This document shows positions 752 through 26,221 of a DNA stretch of 28,932 nucleotides, piece by piece. The notes beneath the pieces were generated by a model. That model saw nothing but the letters and a program-made list of their open reading frames with translations, was not told the DNA's origin and did not search any database. Each line of letters opens with the position of its first letter. Within the stretch, counting starts at the first letter, position 1. The position numbers and the translations under genes are program-made. The stretch comes from a virus (lineage: Duplodnaviria; Caudoviricetes), in the IMG/VR virus record IMGVR_UViG_3300021791_000007, positions 1 to 28,932 of that record; one strand, written 5' to 3'.

Positions 752-1047
752 ACCGTTCCCCCTTTGTTGAAGTGAATGTCATAGAGCTTATCGATCAAGC
801 GACCCGTTTCCGTCTGTCCCGTAGCCCCAGAGTAGTAATTAATGCTGAGTCGTTGGAGTCGAAAAATGGCTGACTCGATCTCATCGAAAAGCCACGTCTC
901 TAGCCCCAACACTCCGGCTTCTAATTCGTCCCTGATGATCGGGTGGACGGGATCTTCCCCCTCGTATGTTTTGTTTCGGTACTCATCCCACCCAGCATCG
1001 TTATCCTTGATCAACTGTTCGTGAAGTTTCTTATATTTTCCAGTCAT
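748..1047 (-). CDS. hypothetical phage protein (99 aa, MTGKYKKLHEQ...)
   Basis: Start re-assigned to the ATG at 1047, which overlaps the helicase stop (ATGA) and follows GGAG. The longer 1149 start lies inside the helicase. Confidence 0.75.
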   Translation of the reverse strand: MTGKYKKLHEQLIKDNDAGWDEYRNKTYEGEDPVHPIIRDELEAGVLGLETWLFDEIESAIFRLQRLSINYYSGATGQTETGRLIDKLYDIHFNKGGTV

Positions 1048-2852
1048 TCCATTTCTCCCATGTAAGCAGTGTTGTATACGGCATCGTCTATCTGACGCTT
1101 GTACTTCCGAAGCATCTTGAATGCCGCGCGTTGTTGTTTCGGAGACCAACTCGCAGACTCCGCGAGCGAGTGACCGAATTCGGAATCGGACCCATTGAAC
1201 CCGACACCATTCTCGAACCTTGCGTGATCCGAGTCCGCAGCGACGAGACCACTGATAGCCACTCGGAGTGCTTCTACTACTGGCTCCGGTAGCGGCTCAA
1301 CCTTCTCGACCGCTTCGACTCCGAGAGATGTCGCAATCTCTTCAATCGTGATCGCCTGACTGACGTCATCATCGAGAGCCGCATCCAGGACGCGCTGCTT
1401 TTCGACCAGGACTTCAGTCATTCGTGCATCGATTGATCCATCGATCACCAGGTGCTGAACCAGGACCGAATCGGTTTGCCCAATTCTGTGGCATCGATCT
1501 TCAGCCTGGGACACGTTGCCGGGAACCCAGTCGAGTTCTGCGAACAGGACGTGGCTTGCAGCCGTGAGGGTGATCCCCACGCCGGCAGCACCAATGGTCC
1601 CGATGAACACCTGGGCGTCACCGTTCTGGAACGCATCGACAGCCCCCTGGCGTTCCTCGGTCGAACTGTCACCCGTGAGGGTTACGACCCGTTGCTCGCA
1701 CCCCTCAGCAATACCGGCGACCACGTCTTTATGGTGTGCCATTACGACCACGGGATGGTCGATGGTGTTGAGGTGCTCGACGATCTCAGGAATCTTCGCA
1801 ACCGCCATGAGATGGCGAACCCGCGAGAGTTCCTGGAACAGCACCTGGGGTGACGTCACTCGTTCCGCCGCCTCTTCGAGTGCAGCGAACTCCGCATCTA
1901 GCTGCGCCTCGAATGAATCGCCAGGAAGCACGATCACTTGGCGTTGCTTTGGAGGCAGCTCTTTCAGCACGTCAGACTTGAGGCGCCGAACCATGATCGA
2001 TTCACGCAACCGCCGCTGTAGCTCTCCGAGATTCGAGGAGCCGGAAAAGTCCCAGCCCCAACGACCCTTGTGAGCGTCGGCATATCGTCGGGCGAACTTA
2101 AAGAAGTTCCCGAAGTTGGTCGGATCAAGGTAACCCGCTATGGGCTGCAACTCGATGGGACGGTTCGTGATCGGAGTCCCCGTCAGCATGAGCCGACGCA
2201 GTCCCTTGATCTTGGTCGCCACTTTGGTGCGTTGCGCCTTGGGATTCTTGGCGTAGTGAGCCTCATCCATGATGACCAGCCCCCAGGTGCGACCCAACAG
2301 CGCTTCCGAATGCTTCGTCAGCACGTCGTAATTGATAATCACAACGTCCGGGTCAGAAGGCATCGGTTCGCCGCCGCCGTTCACGATATCGATTCGACGG
2401 GGGACCACTAGCCATTTCTCAAGTTCACGTTTCCAGTTCAGCTTGAGAGATGCGGGACACACGATCAAAACAGTTTCGGGCGGAGAAACATTCATCACCC
2501 CAATTGCCTGGATCGTTTTACCCAAACCCATTTCGTCACCGAACAAGGTAGCTGGTCGACTCATGGCATAGGCAATACCGCCCCGCTGATACGGGAGGTA
2601 CGCCAACCCCTGGGGTACTGGAATGTCGATGTCAGAATCAACTGCCTTCGACTCTTCCATCGCCTTGACGCTGTCGATCCAGTGGCAAACTTCCCACACG
2701 TTGCCGGTCTTCCGAACCGAGTACCCAGCAGCTTTGACGGCTTCTTTGTCAGCCCTCCAGATCTGCCAGAACTCCTCGTTCGGTTCTGCGGTTGCGAGCT
2801 TCTTCCCGGATTGTGTCTCCGTTGGCTCGCTCCAGTTTAGTTTCAGTTCCAT
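1044..2852 (-). CDS. SNF2/SWI2-family (HepA/SMARCAL1-like) DNA helicase/translocase
   Basis: Motifs YQxxG, DEMGLGKT (Walker A), VCPASLKLNW, DEAH (Walker B), LTGTPITN, GVGITLTAAS, QAEDRCHRIGQ; SD AGAGG 6 nt before the ATG. Confidence 0.95.
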   Translation of the reverse strand: MELKLNWSEPTETQSGKKLATAEPNEEFWQIWRADKEAVKAAGYSVRKTGNVWEVCHWIDSVKAMEESKAVDSDIDIPVPQGLAYLPYQRGGIAYAMSRPATLFGDEMGLGKTIQAIGVMNVSPPETVLIVCPASLKLNWKRELEKWLVVPRRIDIVNGGGEPMPSDPDVVIINYDVLTKHSEALLGRTWGLVIMDEAHYAKNPKAQRTKVATKIKGLRRLMLTGTPITNRPIELQPIAGYLDPTNFGNFFKFARRYADAHKGRWGWDFSGSSNLGELQRRLRESIMVRRLKSDVLKELPPKQRQVIVLPGDSFEAQLDAEFAALEEAAERVTSPQVLFQELSRVRHLMAVAKIPEIVEHLNTIDHPVVVMAHHKDVVAGIAEGCEQRVVTLTGDSSTEERQGAVDAFQNGDAQVFIGTIGAAGVGITLTAASHVLFAELDWVPGNVSQAEDRCHRIGQTDSVLVQHLVIDGSIDARMTEVLVEKQRVLDAALDDDVSQAITIEEIATSLGVEAVEKVEPLPEPVVEALRVAISGLVAADSDHARFENGVGFNGSDSEFGHSLAESASWSPKQQRAAFKMLRKYKRQIDDAVYNTAYMGEME

Positions 2853-2869
2853 TTTTTTCCTCTTGGTTT

Positions 2870-2923
2870 TCCTAGACGCCTCTCGGCGTTTCGACTCGTG
2901 ACCATCGAGTCTCGTCAGTAGGA
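2870..2923 (-). ncRNA. type I hammerhead ribozyme (HH1)
   Basis: Minus strand reads UCCUA-CUGACGA-GACUCG[AUGGUCA]CGAGUC-GAAA-CGCC[GAGA]GGCG-UC^UAGGA. It has the full CUGANGA/GAAA/GUC core and three perfect stems. Predicted cut is between 2875 and 2874. Confidence 0.93.
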
Positions 2924-2924
2924 T

Positions 2925-3242
2925 CTAGACGTCCTTCGCAAAAGTGCCGTGTAGATACATGGGGCGTTCGTTGCCCTGGTCATCGAAACGGCGGTTCTTA
3001 ACAGTCGCGACCCAATCCGAATCGTTGCCAGGAAGCTCACCGAACCCGGAGACGATCATCCCTTGATACCACTCGGTGCAAAATCGAGCTGCCAATTTCT
3101 TGGCTTGGTCGTGGGTGTCTTGCGCGAAATCGACAGACTCCGTGATCGAACGTTTTTCACCGTACCAGACCTCACCAAACGCCTTAATCCTCGCGCCGTG
3201 ATGGTCCGTAGCCTTGAGGTATCTGATTTGAATTACTTGCAT
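2925..3242 (-). CDS. hypothetical phage early protein (105 aa), flanked by the two ribozymes
   Basis: ORF with AAGGA SD; the N-terminal I.xRYLxATxxxGARIKA motif resembles small phage early proteins. Confidence 0.85.
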   Translation of the reverse strand: MQVIQIRYLKATDHHGARIKAFGEVWYGEKRSITESVDFAQDTHDQAKKLAARFCTEWYQGMIVSGFGELPGNDSDWVATVKNRRFDDQGNERPMYLHGTFAKDV

Positions 3243-3259: not shown

Positions 3260-3294
3260 CATTTAGGTTTCCTAGACATTTAGGTTTCCTAGAC
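3260..3294. repeat. 17-bp perfect tandem duplication (CATTTAGGTTTCCTAGA x2) containing the HH2 cleavage site
   Basis: Copies at 3260-3276 and 3277-3293 are identical. Confidence 0.95.
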
Positions 3295-3338
3295 GCCTTG
3301 CGGCGTTTCGACCCGCACCAGGGGTCTCCTCAGTAGGA
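3287..3338 (-). ncRNA. type I hammerhead ribozyme (HH2)
   Basis: Minus strand reads UCCUA-CUGAGGA-GACCC[CUGGUGC]GGGUC-GAAA-CGCC[GCAA]GGCG-UC^UAGGA. Relative to HH1 there is a compensatory U-A to C-G change in stem II, the GNRA loop is kept, and the only core change is at N7. Predicted cut is between 3292 and 3291. Confidence 0.93.
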
Positions 3339-3446
3339 TTGCGTTTCCCGCTTCGACAAACGCCGTTGCTGCTTCTCTCGAACCCGCTTCAGTCGCTTCT
3401 CCCACTTGCGAGAGAGAGCCGCGACGTCTTTTCGTACTTCTTTCAT
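3330..3446 (-). CDS. small basic protein (38 aa, MKEVRKDVAALSRKWEKRLKRVREKQQRRLSKRETQSY)
   Basis: ATG at 3446 overlaps the upstream stop (ATGA) with a strong SD GGAGGTGA; its TGA lies within the HH2 core. Confidence 0.7.
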   Translation of the reverse strand: MKEVRKDVAALSRKWEKRLKRVREKQQRRLSKRETQSY

Positions 3447-4249
3447 GCTGTCACCTCCATTGAATCGATGTGTGTTTCCCACTCGGGGACCGATAGCCGC
3501 TTGCCATCTATGGTCGGCTGGAAAAGACGCTTGCCCTCCGCCCATGAATCCAAGCGCCAGTGACCAGCACCGCACTTCCCATCGGACCGCACCGGCTTAC
3601 CCGCGTCCAGCCATGCCTGGTGCTTCGCGGGTGACGTTTCCTGGAACCGCGCCTCGACCAGCTTGATCGTCTGCCATGCGGCTGGGTCTTGGCGCATCGC
3701 GATGATCTCGTGCTTTTTCATGTACGGGCAGAACACGCACGATGACTTGGGCACCTCGATACCAAACCCGTCGAGATAATCGAGACAGTCCTGGCGCGTC
3801 ATATCGAGATCTTGCAGCGGGTAGCGGTAGGCAGCTTCGTCACCTTTAGGTGCGCTGAACCGTTCGCTTCGCTTGCCTTCGTTGGCTTCAAGACCAATGA
3901 GGTAGCAAATTTTTTCGCCGGGGAAATTATTACCAACCCATTTTTGAATCACGTCCCTCTTAAACCTATTCGAGCAAGCGTGTGCTCCAGCCCCAGGCAT
4001 AAGAGGTAGAGTTCCGTTACGAGTAACCCACTCAGTGATGGTCTCTTTCTCATTCCATACGACCGTGAACGGCAGCCCAGCGTCTTCGCAAAGCTCCGCG
4101 AAGAACTCGACGTTGTCGTAGGTGCCACTGGACTCAGCCCCGGTGTCGGAGAACACGACGTGATCGATACCCTGGTCATCACCCATAAGGTGCATGAGAA
4201 GGATGGTCGAACTGTCGACGCCTCCGCCGAAAGATAGGATCGTTTTCAT
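3443..4249 (-). CDS. phosphoadenosine phosphosulfate (PAPS) reductase-family / PP-loop adenine nucleotide alpha-hydrolase protein
   Basis: N-terminal SFGGGVDS PP-loop, FSDTGAE, CSxRFK, IGxxxxExxR, YPL and C-terminal PKSSCVFCP motifs. Confidence 0.85.
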   Translation of the reverse strand: MKTILSFGGGVDSSTILLMHLMGDDQGIDHVVFSDTGAESSGTYDNVEFFAELCEDAGLPFTVVWNEKETITEWVTRNGTLPLMPGAGAHACSNRFKRDVIQKWVGNNFPGEKICYLIGLEANEGKRSERFSAPKGDEAAYRYPLQDLDMTRQDCLDYLDGFGIEVPKSSCVFCPYMKKHEIIAMRQDPAAWQTIKLVEARFQETSPAKHQAWLDAGKPVRSDGKCGAGHWRLDSWAEGKRLFQPTIDGKRLSVPEWETHIDSMEVTA

Positions 4250-4984: not shown

Positions 4985-5013
4985 AAGATACAGATGGACT
5001 TCGAGAATGTCAA
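4985..5013 (-). promoter_or_regulatory. sigma70-type promoter for the leftward early operon
   Basis: Minus strand TTGACA (5013-5008), 17-nt spacer, TATCTT (4990-4985). The inverted repeat TTGGCTC/GAGCCAA (4970-4986) overlaps the -10/+1 region. Confidence 0.8.
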
Positions 5014-6357: not shown

Positions 6358-6773
6358 TGTTATCCCTGAATCGATTTGTTTATCACCCGTCAGGCACACT
6401 GGGGGTGATCGATATCTCGTTGGAGGGGGTCGAAGAAAGGTTCTGGACTATTGAGCGCCCCTGGCGTGACAATGAGCGCAATGTCAGTTGCATTCCAGAG
6501 GGAGAGTACCCGTTGGAATGGCGGGAAAGTCCGCGATTTGGGATGAGTTGGCACGTTGATGATGTACCCAGCCGTTCTCATATTCTTCTACATGTAGCGA
6601 ATTACCCAACGGACGTGCAGGGGTGCATCGGATTGGGCACGGATTTACTAGGGAATGGTATAGCGGTAGCGAAAAGCAGAGCAGCAATGGAGCGTTTCGA
6701 GGCAATAACGAGAGGCTACCATTGGAGTCTGAGAGTAAAGTTTGTGTCAGATGTGGCGCTGAGAAAAGTCTAG
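6357..6773 (+). CDS. DUF5675-family protein (putative cell-wall enzyme/endolysin candidate)
   Basis: LxR...TLG...TIERPWxDNxxNVSCIPxGxY...RSHILLHxANYxxDxxGCIxxG motif; GTG start after GGAG. Confidence 0.8.
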   Translation: MLSLNRFVYHPSGTLGVIDISLEGVEERFWTIERPWRDNERNVSCIPEGEYPLEWRESPRFGMSWHVDDVPSRSHILLHVANYPTDVQGCIGLGTDLLGNGIAVAKSRAAMERFEAITRGYHWSLRVKFVSDVALRKV

Positions 6774-7210
6774 AAGAATTTGTCATATCGAACGCCACCC
6801 CTGGTGGTAGGGCAAAGCATTGCAAGGTGTGCCACGCCAAGAGGGGGAGGGAGACGTGGAGGAAGAACGCGAGTTCGTCCTTAAAAAAATTTTTAACATA
6901 CAGGGTGACGAAAACCCGGAATTACACAGCGGTTAAAACCCGTGGTTTACCGCACACACTGGTGATGAAGGATGTGATGGAGATGTTTGAGGAGCAGAAT
7001 GGACTGTGTGCAATCTCTGGCATACCGATGACGCATGACTTAGATCACACAGACACAAACGTGAGCATTGATCGGATCGATCCTAATAAGGGGTACGTGA
7101 GGAGCAATGTTCGTTTAACAACGACCCGTGCAAATTTAATGCGGCACACAATGGATGACTCCATGCTGCGTTGGTGGGCAAGGGCAATTCTCTCTAAGGA
7201 GGATGAGTGA
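6722..7210 (+). CDS. HNH-type endonuclease with N-terminal Zn finger
   Basis: CxxC...CKxC finger followed by CAISG...SIDRIDPxKGYxxxNV...N; TTG start after GAGG (start uncertain). Confidence 0.8.
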   Translation: MESESKVCVRCGAEKSLEEFVISNATPGGRAKHCKVCHAKRGRETWRKNASSSLKKFLTYRVTKTRNYTAVKTRGLPHTLVMKDVMEMFEEQNGLCAISGIPMTHDLDHTDTNVSIDRIDPNKGYVRSNVRLTTTRANLMRHTMDDSMLRWWARAILSKEDE

Positions 7211-16744: not shown

Positions 16745-19700
16745 ATGGCTGTAAAGTTTTCCAACCTTGCTAGCTCAACGCTATCAAGTGGAATCAATGA
16801 TTCCGTTACTACGGTTCCGGTAGCGAGCGCGAGTTCCTTCCCCAGCTTGTCTGGGAGCGATTATTTCTATCTATCCCTTGGCATAGGGGCTGGATCAGAG
16901 GTCGTTAAGGTTACTGGGGTTTCTGGAACTAACCTCACTGTTGTCCGTGGTCAGGACGGAACGACTGCTGCCGCCTGGACTTCAGGAACCACGATTGCGC
17001 TGCGCGTAGTCGCAGCAGCCCTGGACGATATTAGTTCTCTCGCATCCACCGCCGCTGATACCGAATCAGTCAGCATTAGCGGCGACACGATGACCGGCGC
17101 ATTAAAGCTGCCGAATGGATCAGAGGGCGCACCTTCTTATGCTTTTTCTGGGCAGGCATCTTCCGGTATGTATCTACTGGGAACCAGCCAGCTTGGGTTA
17201 TCTGTATCTAGCTCGCGAAAGTTCCGCCTTCTTACAACGAGGGCATATTTCGACAATCTTAGTTCTGGTGTGTATGTGGGTGGACCGCTTGAGGCATCTG
17301 GCACTCTAACGGTTCCCACTATGAAGACCACCGCATCGGGTCAACATTACCTGCTTAATACAACCGGAGCAGGACAGAACGCCTACATAACCTATCAAGA
17401 TAACAGCGCCAATAAATGGGAGCACGGGAAGAACACGCTAGATAAGTTCTTCGTTTATAGCTACGCACTCGGGGATACGGTTCTCACGCTACAAAATGAT
17501 GGCAAGGTCGGTATTCGTCAGACCACCCCGACTGAAGCACTCCATATTAAAACGAGGGGCGCACCCGCAAGTATTAGATTGGAACAGTTCGACACATCCG
17601 GTGCGCCGGGTAATAACGACGTCATCGGGAGCATCGACTGGTCTATTAATGATGACGGCACCTTCTCTGGAGCCGACACGGTACGCGCCAGAATTCAGGC
17701 TGTAGTAGAGAACACCAGTTCGGGTACGGGACTGCGATTTTTTTCTGGGAACACAAGTGTCGCTACTCCTGTAGAACGAATGAGAATTATACCGGATGGC
17801 AAAGTAGGCATAGGAACTGCGAGTCCCTCAGGATTACTACACCTAGTTGATGGAGCAGGAACAGTACCCACACTAGGTGGTGGCACTAATTTCATTATCC
17901 AAAATAATGACACTACTAGTGATGTAGCCCGCCTTAATGTGATTGGTGGTGCAGCGGGTTATTCAACTTTACATTTTGGAGATGCAGCCGCTTATAACGT
18001 TGGCGGTGTGATCTACAATCACAGCACAAACACGATGACGCTTGATGCTGGTGGTACTACTGGTATAGCGATTGATTCCAGCGGTAGAGTTGGTATAGGG
18101 ATCACGGCTCCAGATTCTCACGTTAATTTACATATACAAGATTCTGCCTATGCTTTCTTAGCTTTAGAGGCTACTGCTTCAGGTGGGCGACAGTATGAGT
18201 TGTTTAGTTATGCTGCTGACGAAAGTTTTCATATTTATGATCGTAATGCTGACGCCTATCGATTAAGCATAGATGAAACAGGCAAGGTTGGTATAGGAAC
18301 TACGAGTCCAGCAGATGAGCTGGAATTAAAGGGGGATGGATACAGATTCAGGGTTAGTTCAGCGGATCAAATGATAGCTTCGCTGGGTAACTGGGGAAAT
18401 AGTGGTGCGGATATAGACGAAGGCTACTTAAGTTTATATTCGAGTGGAACGGAAGCCATTCGTATAGCCTCAAATGCTGGCTCTTATTTTAATGGCGGCA
18501 TCGTTTCTATAGGGCATACCGCCAGCATTACACAAGAGGTAGTTCAAAGCGGATCTACTATTTCGTCTTGGACGCCCGACCTTCAAGTAAATAAATCAGC
18601 AAATGGCGGTGTGGCGATATCGCAATGGAATACAGGCAATACTGCTTCAGCGAATTTATGGCTAACAAAATCTAGTAATGCCACGGTAGGAACGCATGGA
18701 AGTTTAGACACAGATGAAGCAATAGGAAGAATAATATTTAGTGCTTCTGATGGTTCTACTTTTACAAATAGTGCTTCTATAGAAGCCTTTGCTGATGCTG
18801 GTCAAGGCTCAAATGATACGCCGGGGCGTCTTGAATTTAAGACAACGGCGGATGGTACTGCTGCTCCAACAACCCGAATGACCATCGATCACGCGGGCGA
18901 CGTTTCTATGACGGTGGGAACGGGGAATACGGGCTTGTCGATGATCCCGTCAGCCGCCGGTTCAACCAGTATCATTCTTAATACCTTTGCAGATAATGCA
19001 GCAGGACGGAACTGGGCATTTCGTAATAGATACAACGCGCATGGTCTATTGGAGGTAATGCGCTCAACCTCGAATTCAGCCGCGCCTTTAACGCCGGTTA
19101 TGACGTTCTCTGGTTCTGACGGGACGGTTTCGATTCCCGGAGCCACTAATCTCCAAGGTGCAACCGACCAAACTGGAGTACTCCGCACCAATAGTACCGT
19201 TTCAATCTCTGGTGGATCGGGTTGGTTCGCTCCTTCCGCATCACTCCATGTCAGACAATCCAGCGCCGACGATAACGACACGGGTCTAATTGTCGAAACT
19301 ACGGATGACGGTGAGCGCACTCGTATCGTCCTGAAGAGTGGCAGTTCAGTTGGTGACGGTCTAATCTCGCTGAATTATTACGGTTTTTCGATGGGCTATG
19401 TTGGTGATGAACAAATCATCAACATCGGTCGAGGTAGTAAGTACGTCGGTATTGGTATGGGTAATACCCAACCAGCACACTTGCTTGATATCAAAGGGGC
19501 TTCTGGTACATCTCCTCTTCTACAAATTACGAATTCTGATACAGAAGATAACGACACTGGTCGTGAATCAACGATAAGGTTTTCAGGTTATCGATCCGGT
19601 GGCGAGGCGGTAATTAACGGTCAGATTACCGGAACCCATGACGGTAGTGCTGATGATGATAAAGGGATGCTTACGTTTTTCACCAATGCCGGTTCAGGTA

Positions 19701-22700
19701 TTGCTGAGAAATTCCGCATAGGGGCTGCTGGTCAACTAGGGGTAGGTGGGGCTAATTACGGGACTGACGGTCAAGTGCTAACGTCAACGGGCGCAACAAC
19801 CGCCCCTGCTTGGGAAGATGCCGGTGCTGCCAGCAACTATTGGACTCTATCCAGCGGCAACGTTTATAGATCCAGTGGCTTGGTTGGCATAGGGCTTTCG
19901 TCAGCACCAAAGACATTGCTACAGATTTCTGGCACACCCGTTACCACGGGTGGTGGTGATGTAGCGTCTGTATTAACCCTAATGAACACAGCCTCGGCTG
20001 CTGACGGTAACAAGGTTGGGATTACCTTTTCTACGAATAGTGGCGGTACAGCCAATGCCTTTATAACCGCTGAACAGGATGGCTCAAATCACGGGACACT
20101 GCATTTTGGTGGTTACGACGGTAATGCTAATAGAGCCACCGTATTAAGCATTGATGCTGGTGCAAACGTGGCAACATTTGCTGGGCAAATAATAGCTGAT
20201 GATAGTACTGACGCTGGCGCACCTGTTTACAGCTTTACTGGTGATGCTGACACAGGCTTTTTCCGCGAGGGTGCTAACACGATAGGGATATCGACAGGCG
20301 GCACCAGGCGCTGGTCAATTAGTGGCAGTTCAATGACCTCGCAGATCACAGGCGGGGCTAGGATTACTCAAGCAAACGGCAGTCCCGGCGCACCAAATTT
20401 TACTTTTAACGACGATTCCAACACCGGTATGTATCGAGTTGCTGCCGATAAGCTGGGCTTTACAACTGGCGGGACGTTCCGGGCTGTTATTGATGGCGAT
20501 GGAGACTTTGGTATAGGTACCGCGAGTCCAACATCTAGATTACACATTTATGAAGATGATTCCAGTTTTGGTAATACCCAATTACACATTGAAAATGACA
20601 AAACAGATGATGCGGCAGTCCTTAGAATTGAAGGTAAAAGAACTTCGCTCAACGATACCGCGCAAATTTTGTTTGCTAATAACGGAAGTTTGGGATCGGC
20701 AATTAAAGCCTATTCGGCGGGGCAAGATGGGGATCTTCGGTTCTACACGAGCGGGGCGAGTAGTGGGGACACCTTAAATGAAATGCTGCGCCTCGATAAT
20801 AACGGGCTTTTGTCATTTAAGGCGTCCGGTAACGCTCAAGGAATCAATTTCGAGCAAGGAAACTCGCGGATATATTTCGGCGGTATTAGGGCAATCGAGG
20901 GCAGCACAGCATCGAGCGGGAATCTGGAGCTAGGCGAGGGCTATTCTGGCAAGGTCCAGACGCATTCCGATGCTGGGTTCAATGTTGCCGATGGCTCGCT
21001 CCAGGTGGGCGGGACCGAGGTCATCTCATCGAGTCGGGCGGCTACTTTCGTCGGCATTAATTCCACCTCGGGCACCGTCCAATTCACAGATGGTGGTTCA
21101 ACCTTTGACTCGTCAAATGCTAATGGCTATCCGGTTTTCTCACAAACTAATGGCTCCGCTCAAATAGGGTTTGCGCGCGCCGGGGGTAGCACAGGACTGG
21201 GATACATTGGGGCGGATGTAAACAATGTCTTTGCGGTTTTCGACAGCAGTTTCGTCAAGCACTTCATCGTGACGCAAGGCGGAACGGTCAATATCCCAAC
21301 CGGCGCGCTCCAGATGGGCGGCACCCAAATCATCGACGCAAGCCGCAACATGTCGAACATGGGCAACATCACCGGGGCTTGGCTTTATACGGGAGGTATT
21401 ACAGCAACAGCCGCATCCACTTTAAGCACTGTGCTTATTAGTGGAGTTTCTAACTATACCGGCTTGGAAGTAAAAGGCGCAGGAGGGTCGCGACCTCAAG
21501 TTAAATTTTCTAACGTAAATGACGGCGTTATAGGTCAAATTTATGGAACAGAAGCGAATGCCTTGGTTATTGCAACAGGCACTGGTGGTGCTGCTGCTTT
21601 AACCCTGGACTCATCTCAACAGGCGACTTTTGGTAATCACATCGTATTGCCGACCGTCAGTTCAACCGCTGGACAACTTAGAGGAAACATCGGCGGCTTA
21701 GAGCTGCAGTCGAACAGATCCGGGGATATGGGCATCCTTGGCACGTTTAATAATGGTACGTTCGGCTTCCAGCTTTATGCTCACAGTACTGGGTATGGAT
21801 TTCTGGATGGCGTGTGGAGTTCTTGGGATATAAAGAAGGTGCCAGATGGGAACCTCTACCTCAACGATGACAACACTCATTACCTAAACCCCCCTTCGAC
21901 ATCGATAATGAATCGCATCGATGCGAACATTTATTACGATAAGGGGAACACTGGCTACTACGTCGACCCAGCGTCTACCTCGACCCTGTATCGAGTTCTC
22001 TTCAATGAACACCTAGTCGGGCAAACGGCTGGGGGTTACGTTCAAACCCAAGGGTCGAGCGGCAATCTTTGGGCTATTGGTTCAGGGGGAGGCACGTCTG
22101 CACCGGGGACGGCTTCGACAACGTTTGGCATTCATAACTACAACGGCAGTGCGTGGAGTAATCCTGTTGTAATTCTCAACAATGGAAATTTTCTAATCGG
22201 CGACGATGTTGACTCCACTTTCAGGCTTCACGTTCGGAAGAATGATGCAACACGCGCCAATATAGCCCGTTTTGAAAACAATACGAACGGTGGCGATTCG
22301 AAGGTAGTAATTGCAGCGCAAGCCAATCAGTCCGGTGATCCGTATTTGTATTTTGATGCGGGTGGACAGGACTTCGCGATTGGTGAGCTATGGACTAGCG
22401 GTGCAAATAAGATGACGATTGGCAAAGCCATCCCGTCTGCTTTTGGAGCCGGAGACGGCATTGTGATCGATCAGTCTGGCAACGTCGGTATAGGAACTAC
22501 GAGTCCCGCTTATCCAATCCATGTTGAAAGCTCTGTGGCTGGAGATTGGATGGGCAAGATTAAAAATACCCACGCCACGAACGGGAATGGATTATTAATA
22601 CACGCGGGGGACGATGCTTCTGTAAAAGCTCTACACGTTGGAAGCTATAATGGAACTGGTCAATACCTTGTCGTTCGTGGAGACGGCAACGTTGGTATAG

Positions 22701-25700
22701 GAACTGATGGTCCAGCTCAAAAATTTCATGTTGCAGCAGGCTATATCCATGCAGATGCAGGCTATGGAATAACTTGGGATAATACACATGAAAGGATAGA
22801 ACAAAGTGACGGCAAGTTAGAGTTCTTCACGAATAATGGAGAGGCAATGACCCTTAGTGGTTCTAATTTAGGTATAGGAACTACGAGTCCCGGTTATCCA
22901 ATCCATGTTGAAAGCTCTGTGGCTGGAGACTGGATGGGCAAGATTAAAAATACCCACGCAACGAATGGGTATGGATTATTAATACACGCAGGGGATGATG
23001 CTTCTGTAAAAGCTCTGAGCGTTGGAAACTATGCTGGAACTGGTGATTACCTTGTCGTTCGTGGGGATGGCAACGTTGGTATAGGAGCTACGAGTCCGGG
23101 GTATAAACTTCATGTTACAGGCACTATTGGTGTATTCACTGGAGGCGATGCCCTTCTTTATTTAGGTGAGGGTGAGAGTGGTGGGTCATATTCAAAAATT
23201 TATTGGAAATCCTCTGACGATACATTAAGGCTCGGCACACAAGCGGGTGGTGATACTGTTGTAATAAATGAATCGGGCAACGTTGGTATAGGAGCTACGA
23301 ATCCCGGTACAAAGTTGGATGTATCTACAGTCGCAAATGTGGCTGGAATTAGAGTTGTAGCACCAAATACAACTGGTCAATCTTATGGGGTAACCATTGC
23401 GGCTGGAAGCAACGCATCAGATTATGCTTTTAATATCAATAATGCGGCTGGAACTGGACTCGTTAGAGTTCGTGGGGATGGCAACGTTGGTATAGGGGAA
23501 ACTGCGCCTTGGGCAAAACTTCATGTTAACAAAGGGGGCGGGAGTGGTGTTAATGATGCGGATGATACCCTTTTATTAAGTGATAGTGATTACGTCAGCT
23601 TTATGATGGAACACTATAACGCGGCTTCTGGTAGTAGAAATGTAAGATTTAGAAATAATGCTGGTGTAGTTACTGTTGAACGAATGAATGATGCAGCGAC
23701 TACTCTCACATCAACTACGATGACAATCGATACACCAAATGGAAGGGTGCATGTGATTGGATCTGGAACCACAATCAATAATGCCAATACTGGGGAGCTT
23801 CAAATAGGAGCTGGTCTAGCTTCTGCCGGTTCAGCCGGTTCAGTTCAACGTTTAGCAATGCAACCCTATGCACATACTGGTGGTCCGTGGACATTTACTG
23901 CAAGAGATACATCTAGTAAGGCATATTTAGATATTGGATATGGAGCTGGACCTGACGTTACTTTCACCAGCGATGGCTCCGTTGGTATAAATGACACCAC
24001 TCCTGAATTTCCCTTAACTATTGGTATTACCAGTTCAACTACTCAACAAGTTGGGCTTGAAGTTACTCAAGCTACTAGTGGTAACGACGGTCGTATTCGA
24101 TTTAAGAATACGGCTGATAGTAATTATGTACGCATGGGGATGGAGTCAAACGGTACATTTTTTGTAGAGCCATACACGGGTTCGCAATACCTGAAAGTCT
24201 TAAAAATTACGAAAGTAGGGGTTATGACCCTTACGGGTAATGAATCCCATTTTTATAGAGGTAGTAATGATGTAGGCACGGGTCATGAAATGTATTGGAC
24301 TGGCTCAAACTACGCCGGTTCAATGATTGATTACGCAATGATAAAAAATAGCATTGTGTCACGCACTAATGGGGCTGAGTCTGCAGATTTAATATTCAAA
24401 GTTAAAAATGCTGGGTCTTTCACCCAGCCCATGACCATTAAATACGATGGCAACGTGGAGATGAGCGAAGGGCTGACGGTGGGCGATGGCTTAACCGTTA
24501 ACGGTGCCGGTGGTGTTGTTTATTACGAACAGGGGCAAGGCGCACCCGCCATTAATTCTGATAACACGGTTGGTGCCCTCGTCCTGAAAGACAAAGACAA
24601 CAACTGGGAGGGCACTCTCTATGCTACCAGTACGGAGTTTGGGTTCCTTAATGGAGAATGGGCGAGTTGGGACCAGCGCAAGGTAAAAGCTGGAAATCTC
24701 TACCTAAACAACAACAACAGCTACTACATGAACCCCGGCGTTACGTCGATCTTCAATGATCTGCGTGCCAACATTGTGTACGACCAGAACAATACGGCGT
24801 ATCACTCAGACCCCTCTGCTACGACTACGTTAAGCACTCTGAATGTGAATGCTACTGCTACTTTCAATTCCACGTTTACAATTTCTAATAGTGCCTCCGA
24901 CGTAAAAATCAGCCTGCAAGGAACGAATGATCCACTTATTCATTGGAAGGAGGGGACAACAGATCGTTTCTATATTCAATGGCGAGCGGGTTACAACGCC
25001 CCAATCTATGTTAATCAAGAAAGTAATACTCATGAGTTCTATGGAACGGGAGGTAGCACTGCCCTTAGATTTAAGTCTGATAATGAAACGATACGTGGCT
25101 ACGTCTACACCGATACTAGCGGCATGGGGTTCTTGGACAAGGACGGTCAATGGGCGTTCTACCACGTTCACGATCAGTACACGCGGTTCAGTGTAAATAA
25201 CGGTGGGCATTGCTATGCCTACTCCAGCTCATTCAGAGCGCCAATTTTTTATGATTCAGATAACACCGCTTACTATATAGATGGAGCGGGAACATCGGTC
25301 TTCAATACCCTTAGAGCCAACACCACGTTTGGTGTTAACACCACGTCCAGTACCCATGTATCGACAACCAAAATACAAGCAATCGCTAGTTCTGGGGCAC
25401 CCGCCACCGGTAGTACTACACAAGGTAATAGTGCGCTATGCCTCGAAGGGCAACCGGGGATTAGGCTGGACATTGGCTCCAACTATTCTTGGGGCAGTAC
25501 GCATTGGTTTCAGACAGGTAATAAGACTGATCTAAGTGCAAGGTATGGCATTTCGCTTAACCCAATGGGTGGCTCTGTAACTGTTGGCTTGGCAGCAACA
25601 CCACCCAGCACAAGTTCTTATCGTTTTTATGTTCAGAATTCTTCACATAACCAACCCGGTGCTCTTGTTGAAAGCACCCATGCTGGTCAAAGTGCTAGCG

Positions 25701-26221
25701 AACTTCTAACGCTCCGCTACGCGCCGGGAAGTCCAAACAATACTGCTGCAAAATATCTTACATGCTATGACGATGACAGTGAGGGAACCTTACACATCTA
25801 TTCAAATGGCAATGTGGTCAACACCAACGATTCGTATGGCGGGTTATCTGACCTCAAGCTAAAGCAGGATGTTGCTGATGCCAGCAGCCAATGGGATGAC
25901 GTTAAAGCTTTGCGGCTCCGTAAGTTCCGGTTTAAGCACGCCGTCGCGGAAGATCCAGATGCACCTTATATGCTGGGTCTTATTGCACAAGAAACAGAAT
26001 TAATCTCCCCTAACCTTGTTGTTGATACTGAAGACTTAGAGGACGTGGAGGTTGAGCTTGAAGACGGCTCGACAGAGATGAGGAGATTACCAAACGGCGA
26101 AACAACTAAAGAGTTGAAGTACAGTATCCTGCACACAAAGGCATTTGGAGCCTTGCAGGAGGCTATGGCGCGAATCGAAGAATTAGAAGCAAAAGTTGCT
26201 TCTTTAGAAGAGGCTAGTTAG
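16745..26221 (+). CDS. giant modular tail fibre (3158 aa) with C-terminal peptidase S74 intramolecular chaperone
   Basis: N-terminal anchor (EVVKVT...LTVVRGQDGT), many GNVGIG repeats, SDLKLKQD...FRFK...GLIAQE autocleavage domain from ~25847, terminal coiled coil. Confidence 0.92.
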   Translation: MAVKFSNLASSTLSSGINDSVTTVPVASASSFPSLSGSDYFYLSLGIGAGSEVVKVTGVSGTNLTVVRGQDGTTAAAWTSGTTIALRVVAAALDDISSLASTAADTESVSISGDTMTGALKLPNGSEGAPSYAFSGQASSGMYLLGTSQLGLSVSSSRKFRLLTTRAYFDNLSSGVYVGGPLEASGTLTVPTMKTTASGQHYLLNTTGAGQNAYITYQDNSANKWEHGKNTLDKFFVYSYALGDTVLTLQNDGKVGIRQTTPTEALHIKTRGAPASIRLEQFDTSGAPGNNDVIGSIDWSINDDGTFSGADTVRARIQAVVENTSSGTGLRFFSGNTSVATPVERMRIIPDGKVGIGTASPSGLLHLVDGAGTVPTLGGGTNFIIQNNDTTSDVARLNVIGGAAGYSTLHFGDAAAYNVGGVIYNHSTNTMTLDAGGTTGIAIDSSGRVGIGITAPDSHVNLHIQDSAYAFLALEATASGGRQYELFSYAADESFHIYDRNADAYRLSIDETGKVGIGTTSPADELELKGDGYRFRVSSADQMIASLGNWGNSGADIDEGYLSLYSSGTEAIRIASNAGSYFNGGIVSIGHTASITQEVVQSGSTISSWTPDLQVNKSANGGVAISQWNTGNTASANLWLTKSSNATVGTHGSLDTDEAIGRIIFSASDGSTFTNSASIEAFADAGQGSNDTPGRLEFKTTADGTAAPTTRMTIDHAGDVSMTVGTGNTGLSMIPSAAGSTSIILNTFADNAAGRNWAFRNRYNAHGLLEVMRSTSNSAAPLTPVMTFSGSDGTVSIPGATNLQGATDQTGVLRTNSTVSISGGSGWFAPSASLHVRQSSADDNDTGLIVETTDDGERTRIVLKSGSSVGDGLISLNYYGFSMGYVGDEQIINIGRGSKYVGIGMGNTQPAHLLDIKGASGTSPLLQITNSDTEDNDTGRESTIRFSGYRSGGEAVINGQITGTHDGSADDDKGMLTFFTNAGSGIAEKFRIGAAGQLGVGGANYGTDGQVLTSTGATTAPAWEDAGAASNYWTLSSGNVYRSSGLVGIGLSSAPKTLLQISGTPVTTGGGDVASVLTLMNTASAADGNKVGITFSTNSGGTANAFITAEQDGSNHGTLHFGGYDGNANRATVLSIDAGANVATFAGQIIADDSTDAGAPVYSFTGDADTGFFREGANTIGISTGGTRRWSISGSSMTSQITGGARITQANGSPGAPNFTFNDDSNTGMYRVAADKLGFTTGGTFRAVIDGDGDFGIGTASPTSRLHIYEDDSSFGNTQLHIENDKTDDAAVLRIEGKRTSLNDTAQILFANNGSLGSAIKAYSAGQDGDLRFYTSGASSGDTLNEMLRLDNNGLLSFKASGNAQGINFEQGNSRIYFGGIRAIEGSTASSGNLELGEGYSGKVQTHSDAGFNVADGSLQVGGTEVISSSRAATFVGINSTSGTVQFTDGGSTFDSSNANGYPVFSQTNGSAQIGFARAGGSTGLGYIGADVNNVFAVFDSSFVKHFIVTQGGTVNIPTGALQMGGTQIIDASRNMSNMGNITGAWLYTGGITATAASTLSTVLISGVSNYTGLEVKGAGGSRPQVKFSNVNDGVIGQIYGTEANALVIATGTGGAAALTLDSSQQATFGNHIVLPTVSSTAGQLRGNIGGLELQSNRSGDMGILGTFNNGTFGFQLYAHSTGYGFLDGVWSSWDIKKVPDGNLYLNDDNTHYLNPPSTSIMNRIDANIYYDKGNTGYYVDPASTSTLYRVLFNEHLVGQTAGGYVQTQGSSGNLWAIGSGGGTSAPGTASTTFGIHNYNGSAWSNPVVILNNGNFLIGDDVDSTFRLHVRKNDATRANIARFENNTNGGDSKVVIAAQANQSGDPYLYFDAGGQDFAIGELWTSGANKMTIGKAIPSAFGAGDGIVIDQSGNVGIGTTSPAYPIHVESSVAGDWMGKIKNTHATNGNGLLIHAGDDASVKALHVGSYNGTGQYLVVRGDGNVGIGTDGPAQKFHVAAGYIHADAGYGITWDNTHERIEQSDGKLEFFTNNGEAMTLSGSNLGIGTTSPGYPIHVESSVAGDWMGKIKNTHATNGYGLLIHAGDDASVKALSVGNYAGTGDYLVVRGDGNVGIGATSPGYKLHVTGTIGVFTGGDALLYLGEGESGGSYSKIYWKSSDDTLRLGTQAGGDTVVINESGNVGIGATNPGTKLDVSTVANVAGIRVVAPNTTGQSYGVTIAAGSNASDYAFNINNAAGTGLVRVRGDGNVGIGETAPWAKLHVNKGGGSGVNDADDTLLLSDSDYVSFMMEHYNAASGSRNVRFRNNAGVVTVERMNDAATTLTSTTMTIDTPNGRVHVIGSGTTINNANTGELQIGAGLASAGSAGSVQRLAMQPYAHTGGPWTFTARDTSSKAYLDIGYGAGPDVTFTSDGSVGINDTTPEFPLTIGITSSTTQQVGLEVTQATSGNDGRIRFKNTADSNYVRMGMESNGTFFVEPYTGSQYLKVLKITKVGVMTLTGNESHFYRGSNDVGTGHEMYWTGSNYAGSMIDYAMIKNSIVSRTNGAESADLIFKVKNAGSFTQPMTIKYDGNVEMSEGLTVGDGLTVNGAGGVVYYEQGQGAPAINSDNTVGALVLKDKDNNWEGTLYATSTEFGFLNGEWASWDQRKVKAGNLYLNNNNSYYMNPGVTSIFNDLRANIVYDQNNTAYHSDPSATTTLSTLNVNATATFNSTFTISNSASDVKISLQGTNDPLIHWKEGTTDRFYIQWRAGYNAPIYVNQESNTHEFYGTGGSTALRFKSDNETIRGYVYTDTSGMGFLDKDGQWAFYHVHDQYTRFSVNNGGHCYAYSSSFRAPIFYDSDNTAYYIDGAGTSVFNTLRANTTFGVNTTSSTHVSTTKIQAIASSGAPATGSTTQGNSALCLEGQPGIRLDIGSNYSWGSTHWFQTGNKTDLSARYGISLNPMGGSVTVGLAATPPSTSSYRFYVQNSSHNQPGALVESTHAGQSASELLTLRYAPGSPNNTAAKYLTCYDDDSEGTLHIYSNGNVVNTNDSYGGLSDLKLKQDVADASSQWDDVKALRLRKFRFKHAVAEDPDAPYMLGLIAQETELISPNLVVDTEDLEDVEVELEDGSTEMRRLPNGETTKELKYSILHTKAFGALQEAMARIEELEAKVASLEEAS
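22487..23089 (+). repeat. ~219-bp imperfect direct repeat inside the tail fibre (22487-22705 and 22871-23089)
   Basis: Both copies encode GIGTTSPxYPIHVESSVAGDWMGKIKNTHATNGxGLLIHAGDDASVKAL...YLVVRGDGNVGIG; offset 384 bp. Confidence 0.95.

Follow-up and report, generated by a model that had tools for sequence, protein, structure and literature searches.

A short gene of a tailed phage ends inside a predicted self-cleaving RNA, which raises the question of whether the overlap regulates anything or only saves space. The stretch of DNA analysed here (the window) is the whole 28,932-base contig of this phage. On the minus strand, the last codons and stop of a basic 38-aa ORF coincide with the catalytic core of a hammerhead ribozyme, HH2 (Table 1). 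The initial annotation saw in this a device by which translation of the peptide controls self-cleavage.

Rightward genes of the phage encode terminase, an SU10-type portal, capsid and tail proteins. An endonuclease VII/HNH-like gene (6623-7210) lies shortly upstream of the terminase large subunit gene, and a 3158-aa tail fibre-like protein (16745-26221) has a C-terminal Peptidase_S74 chaperone domain. The leftward operon begins near position 5000, where there is a candidate promoter (TTGACA-17-TATCTT, 5013-4985; three sites with this pattern were found in the window versus 2.6 expected by chance). Its order is a 230-aa gene, a PAPS-reductase-like gene, the 38-aa ORF, HH2, a 105-aa orphan gene, a second hammerhead (HH1), a gene for an SNF2 helicase and three further ORFs. 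All five ribozyme-free junctions of this operon are -4 overlaps, and the two ribozyme-bearing junctions are gaps of 87 and 72 nt. The 268-aa product of the gene upstream of the ORF matches PHROG 424 (PAPS reductase; E 3e-32), in line with the initial annotation, and has no Pfam match. A homolog search with the 105-aa orphan protein found only itself.

The runs containing this stretch come from seawater or marine metagenomes wherever a label is given, and none of those listed is an RNA run. We rejected an assembly artefact, as other runs carry the identical sequence. The ORF end and HH2 are the same, with zero differing letters, in the contigs of runs X5, X7 and X10 (the study that produced X7 also includes a possible source run), which are near-identical strains and have little power on selection.

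Table 1. Features of the leftward operon around HH2 (window coordinates).
Feature	Position	Strand	Remarks
SNF2-type helicase gene	1044..2852	-	Start 22 nt past HH1 cut site
HH1, second type I hammerhead	2864..2923	-	Core C3 at 2918; predicted cut 2875/2874
105-aa orphan gene, between HH2 and HH1	2925..3242	-	TAG ends 7 nt before HH1 core
17-nt tandem duplication of cleavage-site/leader sequence	3261..3294	-	Absent from one X10 contig; present in X5, X7, X12
HH2 stem I 3' strand UAGGA (3291-3287) and pseudoknot tail	3283..3291	-	Descriptor
HH2 G12-A13-A14-A15.1, stem III with GCAA loop, U16.1-C17	3292..3309	-	Descriptor and Rfam match
HH2 stem II, 5 bp, loop CUGGUGC	3310..3326	-	Descriptor
HH2 core C3-U4-G5-A6-G7-G8-A9	3327..3333	-	U4-G5-A6 (3332-3330) is the stop codon; C3 is 3333
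HH2 stem I 5' strand UCCUA, codons Ser-Tyr	3334..3338	-	Descriptor and Rfam match
38-aa basic ORF	3330..3446	-	Last three codons and stop in or against HH2
PAPS-reductase-like gene, 268 aa	3443..4249	-	phrog_424; last codons hold the Shine-Dalgarno sequence of the 38-aa ORF
Shine-Dalgarno sequence GGAGGUGA of the 38-aa ORF	3451..3458	-	Anti-SD pairing -15.0 kcal/mol

The ORF ends with CAA (3341-3339), UCC UAC (3338-3333) and UGA (3332-3330). Thus two observations of the initial annotation hold to the letter: the stop is U4-G5-A6 of HH2, and the preceding codons supply the 5' strand of stem I (UCCUA, 3338-3334) and C3. HH2 has the elements of a type I hammerhead core (CUGAGGA, GAAA, a GUC site and an A15.1-U16.1 pair), with stems of 5, 5 and 4 bp in addition to that pair and with stem I open-ended. 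Cleavage is predicted after GUC, between 3292 and 3291. A 3-bp pseudoknot is predicted between GGU of loop II (3319-3317) and ACC of the tail (3285-3283). HH1, 415 nt downstream of HH2, likewise has a loop UGGU complementary to a tail ACCA.

A descriptor scan of the window found exactly two type I hammerheads, with cores at 3333 and 2918, and none of 30 dinucleotide shuffles yielded one. Full-length matches to the Rfam model RF00163 score 29.5 bits (E 3.9e-4) for HH2 and 27.1 bits (E 2.5e-3) for the other. Both are below the gathering score of 34, which is a curation threshold and not a structural feature; at the gathering level Rfam has zero matches in the window. The ribozyme exceeds chance. 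The stop overlap exceeds it only weakly, because every hammerhead has UGA in one frame.

The 38-aa ORF is probably a real gene, because its strong Shine-Dalgarno (SD) sequence, its start and its 39-aa homologs outweigh its poor codon usage. The SD sequence (GGAGGTGA, 3458-3451, minus strand) is as strong as first described: it has the strongest anti-SD pairing of the five operon genes compared (-15.0 kcal/mol). The start codon (ATG, 3446-3444) overlaps the stop of the PAPS-reductase-like gene (TGA, 3445-3443) as ATGA. The 38 codons encode MKEVRKDVAALSRKWEKRLKRVREKQQRRLSKRETQSY, with a net charge of +10. A search of 1.84 billion proteins found one homolog, P0001 (39 aa, 67% identity over residues 1-33, E 1.6e-4, colinear from Met1), in a cluster of four sequences (P0001-P0004). 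The codon-usage score is -0.075. Only 1.5% of 203 in-frame windows fall to this value or lower, and 27% of 406 off-frame windows reach or exceed it; the K/R-rich composition may account for the poor score. We infer that the ORF is translated and is translationally coupled to the PAPS-reductase-like gene.

Other searches with the peptide returned little. There was no tblastn match among cultured phages, the back-translated pattern matched 0 viral contigs, and ESM Atlas matches at 0.91 are 46-aa proteins without names and are uninformative. Two alternative frames were rejected, namely an 81-codon extension from GTG 3575, which lies inside the PAPS-reductase-like gene and lacks a good SD, and a 31-codon ORF beginning in the 17-nt duplication, which lacks a clear SD.

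The original proposal likened the arrangement to a leader-peptide attenuator with self-cleavage as its output. In the full form of this model the device is dedicated to the peptide, and the Arg/Lys-rich product would either sense stalling or bind HH1 and HH2. The SD strength, ATGA overlap, basic charge and position of the stop exactly in the core would suit such a device. So would the X10 contig, in which the ORF and HH2 are unchanged and the sequence nearby differs. The homologous phages argue against it. Homologs of the PAPS-reductase-like gene with 61-68% identity are present among hammerhead loci on three contigs of two lineages (L040; L198 and L237). In all three the stop of this gene lies at -6 or -7 (positions here are those of the last stop base relative to C3) and the peptide between gene and hammerhead is absent, contrary to the expectation that homologous phages would keep a stop in the core. 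In L198 and L237, the hammerhead behind this gene has an extra or mismatched stem II base right after G10.1 and was missed by the descriptor scan.

The peptide homologs terminate in SKTLESKDL or SKTLTSKDL, versus QSY in the window, and their last codons fit the stem I of the hammerhead family poorly (Asp would place A at -4, seen in 1% of members). Conservation of the peptide or of control codons together with the RNA structure was not found, and the ORF is an internal coupled cistron, the third of the operon, and not a 5' leader. The idea of an RNA-binding peptide fails on conservation as well. The 14 other proteins that end on a core UGA are unrelated to the peptide (49-379 aa, net charge -14 to +3), and only that of the window is strongly basic. 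We consider a dedicated attenuator very improbable. Beyond the hammerhead loci, no confirmed relative was found in the viral contigs searched with the PAPS-reductase-like protein. Cultured phages gave no blastn match to HH1 or HH2 and no match at least 60% identical to this protein (the best 15 are 26-31% identical).

How phage genes generally end at such ribozymes was surveyed with five pattern scans, which returned 6, 125, 126, 17 and 47 loci and at least 185 hammerhead calls in at least 111 clusters, the two of the window included. The two viral scans covered 34 of 64 parts, with complete flanks for 80 loci each. The patterns demand CUGANGAG and CGAAACG, and the survey samples one family and not all hammerheads. 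Upstream genes were defined as SD-led ORFs of at least 35 aa or open frames of at least 75 codons and were called for 101 of 111 clusters (the other 10 had too short a context or gave no call). Two calls that ran past the cut (L260 and L201) were apparent shadow frames; for these, the genes with stops at -9 and -28 were chosen by hand instead.

The survey gives a clear family layout of stop, ribozyme, A/C-rich leader, SD and ATG, with the stop within about 10 nt of the core and the SD-led start about 25 nt past the cut. Of 111 members among the matches listed, 81 have an SD-led start beyond the cut site, in most cases 21-35 nt away. Stops of the upstream gene are at -9 to -5 in 51 of the 101 members with a call among the matches listed (36 of these at -7 or -6), at -10 in one and at -1 in ten. 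They use the core UGA (+3) in 15, lie at +13 to +22 in eight and are further upstream than -10 in 16; these clusters are not phylogenetically independent. In total, 77 of 101 stops are at -10 to +3, within reach of a ribosome, including that of HH1 (-7). Members with stops at -9 to -5 mostly have U, A and A at positions -8 to -6 (0.54, 0.84, 0.58), where the window has CAA.

Genes that read into the ribozyme use the core frame in 15 of 33 cases among the matches listed (p=0.14 versus 1/3). The remainder stop at a UAA, UGA or UAG inside stem I, or continue through the core into stem II. For example, genes of L190, L247 and L268, whose products end in ...LTDEA or ...LTDEG, cross the entire core and have their stops in stem II or in the loop of that stem. 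The 15 core-stop members include that of the window and three homologous pairs. Most +3 calls should be real, because of the 37 members with their gene ending in a different frame, only 1 has a chance SD-led ORF that stops at +3. The homologous gene pairs (L005/L265, L256/L264 and L046/L266) retain their core stops, so the overlap appears stable once made. After the two hand corrections, no called gene among the 101 members listed runs past the cut site, though about 55% of members have no stop before the cut in each off-core frame. As far as sequence comparison goes, this shows that stop position is under selection, at least for staying upstream of the cut.

Loop-tail complementarity in the family is 3.15, versus 2.76 +/- 0.06 when tails are swapped (0 of 1000 swaps reach it), in a comparison where the search patterns favoured such motifs and relatedness is uncontrolled. 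Matched loop/tail variants include CGGU/ACCG, UAGU/ACUA, GGG/CCC and UGGAU/AUCCA. Some loci (L134, L179, L187 and L312/L313) have three or four hammerheads in series between consecutive small genes. One subfamily of these series has a 4-bp stem II, short loops and a stem I GGUUAA that contains the stop, and another has the loop UGAGA; no clear Watson-Crick pseudoknot was identified in either.

Because many unrelated phage genes end in or beside such ribozymes, a stop in the core is most likely a matter of packing. We conclude that HH2 is probably an mRNA-processing hammerhead, and that the 38-aa gene ends on its core UGA most likely through tight gene packing against a ribozyme cassette. Ribozyme-free junctions of the same loci provide a control. 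The upstream stop overlaps the next element at 39 of 101 hammerhead junctions (stop versus stem I) and at 64 of 136 control junctions (stop versus SD; p=0.23). It lies within 5 nt of that element at 86 of 101 versus 71 of 136 junctions (p=8.5e-8), in a control that understates tightness because genes shorter than 50 aa are missed and long gaps are included. Exactly flush stops are found in 25 of 101 members among the matches listed. This peak seems only partly explained by the flaws of the control and speaks more strongly than any other evidence against packing alone. It would equally suit a cassette that brings a stop of its own, by analogy with the PeSL cassettes discussed below.

The flush peak and the many stops at -10 to +3 are also what would be expected if hammerheads across the family were selected to sit where a terminating ribosome covers them. 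The cut would then be held back during translation of the upstream gene, and the timing of cleavage would report that translation. There is precedent at terminators. The ribosome protects about 10 nt beyond the A site, hairpins 5 nt after a stop are repressed by ribosomes (Li et al., 2016, PMC4824070), and with the stop 5 nt upstream, terminator efficiency falls from about 90% to less than 10% (PMC4824070). By analogy, a terminating ribosome would unfold stem I or the core for stops at about -10 to +22 (85 of 101 members). Thus the proposal that a ribosome at this stop unfolds HH2 is sterically sound, as a UGA in the A site leaves stem I and the core unpaired; the part that fails is its uniqueness to HH2, given the 77 of 101 stops within reach.

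In a toy model of three states run with assumed rates, the delay stays within 3-fold for 43 of 54 parameter sets; it rises to as much as 24-fold only where refolding is slow and translation heavy. Unlike terminators, ribozymes are free to act at any later time. Modulation of cleavage by ribosomes is likely and a switch is not, because cleavage is irreversible and can wait. An overlap frequency no higher than at ordinary junctions, and 16 of 101 stops more than 10 nt upstream, also count against selection for ribosome gating, which we consider unlikely. It is correspondingly doubtful that the operon is cut into single-gene mRNAs only once upstream translation slows. Under gating, HH2 would represent the far end of the range, with a 38-codon ORF that has strong initiation signals and ends in the core, and with a predicted inhibitory hairpin, meltable by a ribosome, that depends on its unique G7.

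This G at hammerhead position 7 (window position 3329) is present in only 1 of 111 family members among the matches listed. It permits the predicted hairpin UCCU/AGGA over the core, and the HH2 tail ACCU permits UAGG/CCUA pairing. In the predicted minimum-energy folds, the 5' strand of stem I pairs with the core and the 3' strand with the tail. HH2 could instead be a weakened or decaying copy that cuts slowly or never, with the overlap and peptide incidental. The rare G7, the predicted sequestration of the stem I strands, the pseudoknot of merely 3 bp and the polymorphic 17-nt duplication at the cut site are consistent with this. The duplication copies the GUC cut site, the stem I 3' strand and the pseudoknot tail, and would offer a second stem I partner without stem III.

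Yet the conserved core positions of HH2 are all intact and its three stems are perfect. The active secondary structure is 3.8 kcal/mol less stable than the minimum-energy fold. Of 108 members listed, 27% have a gap at least as large, in a calculation whose energies omit tertiary contacts; hairpins that may compete with the active fold are predicted, with an energy gap ordinary for the family. HH2 is also unchanged in the contigs covering it, near-identical strains though they are. We therefore regard decay as improbable. The median gap is 3.6 in core-stop members (n=15) versus 1.9 in members with stops at -10 to -5 (n=51; significance not assessed). This leaves some room for a variant of gating in which a passing ribosome resets misfolds instead of holding back the cut.

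Neighbouring genes give some indication of how the packed arrangement may have arisen. A 105-109-aa gene ends at -6 in L254, L259 and L261, and in L005 a small coupled ORF intervenes and ends on the core UGA. On the minus strand of L256, two different genes have the same DNA over their last codons, one with its stop at -5 and the other at +3 (their hammerheads are at 1542 and 2208 of the reversed locus). This suggests recombination reaching into coding sequence. In run X14, HH1 and the helicase start sit behind a different gene that ends in TAA at -7; the break is at the stem I edge (window position 2923) and has the appearance of cassette-like gene swapping.

Under the packing explanation, HH2, as a member of a widespread phage type I family, would cut early polycistronic mRNA between genes. 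The cassette may travel or recombine as a unit, as the swapped upstream genes suggest, and genes packed against it would read on until the first in-frame stop. The peptide gene would have come to lie between the PAPS-reductase-like gene and the ribozyme, and its QSY tail may be ribozyme-derived, with CAA at the usual UAA site of the family. Hammerhead products have 2',3'-cyclic phosphate and 5'-OH ends (PMC8782182), and RNases E, J and Y favour 5'-monophosphate ends (PMC10939160). After the cut, the upstream mRNA would keep its stop and end in hairpins, and the downstream mRNA would have a short 5'-OH leader before its SD. The operon would thereby be split into short mRNAs. Ribosomes terminating at the stop would briefly unfold the core and modestly delay the cut, as at most family members, and would not act as a switch.

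If upstream translation alters cleavage, HH2 would be a natural ribosome-gated ribozyme. If cleavage is unaltered, the overlap reflects economy of the genome, and HH2 adds one to the phage hammerheads that process mRNA. In the trp, his and erm leader-peptide attenuators, the 5' arm of an RNA structure further downstream is covered by a ribosome that stands at the stop. Unlike in those systems, neither a conserved leader peptide nor linkage of ORF and structure was found at HH2. RiboJ-type synthetic insulators also place a self-cleaving RNA just before the SD and give a fixed short 5'-OH leader; they are engineered and placed after promoters, whereas the window hammerheads are natural and their cleavage is predicted.

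Masking of the 5' arm of a downstream structure by a ribosome at the stop is shared with terminators near stops (PMC4824070), but termination is decided in one short co-transcriptional moment and ribozyme cleavage is possible at any time. In the T4-type phages RB49 and phi1, PeSL cassettes start at the stop codon of the gene before them (Arbiol et al., 2010, PMC2839356). They are promoter and terminator elements with demonstrated mini-circles, whereas the window cassette is a ribozyme whose recombination is suggested by swapped neighbours. In the open-licence literature, covered mostly as titles and abstracts, we found no report of stop codons within the hammerhead cores of phages. Phage hammerheads that flank single genes are already known, with their role in phages described as open (PMC6765202, PMC6155905).

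The closest likeness is to the clustered prophage hammerheads flanking single genes that Perreault et al. (2011, PMC3088659) described. These cleave in vitro and in E. coli, and tandem copies cleaved 2-kb transcripts in both settings. The main text of that paper does not contain "stop codon", "translation" or "ribosom", and its supplementary alignments or figures may show core stops. Those hammerheads are members of RF00163 (Hammerhead_1, clan CL00010), whereas the window's score below gathering. The two share type I topology and a canonical core, and a loop II-tail pseudoknot like that of the prophage hammerheads is predicted in the window. In both, several copies flank small non-conserved genes, for which processing of polycistronic mRNA has been proposed (PMC3088659). 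On the best reading of the sequence, HH2 joins this known kind, a phage mRNA-processing hammerhead cassette.
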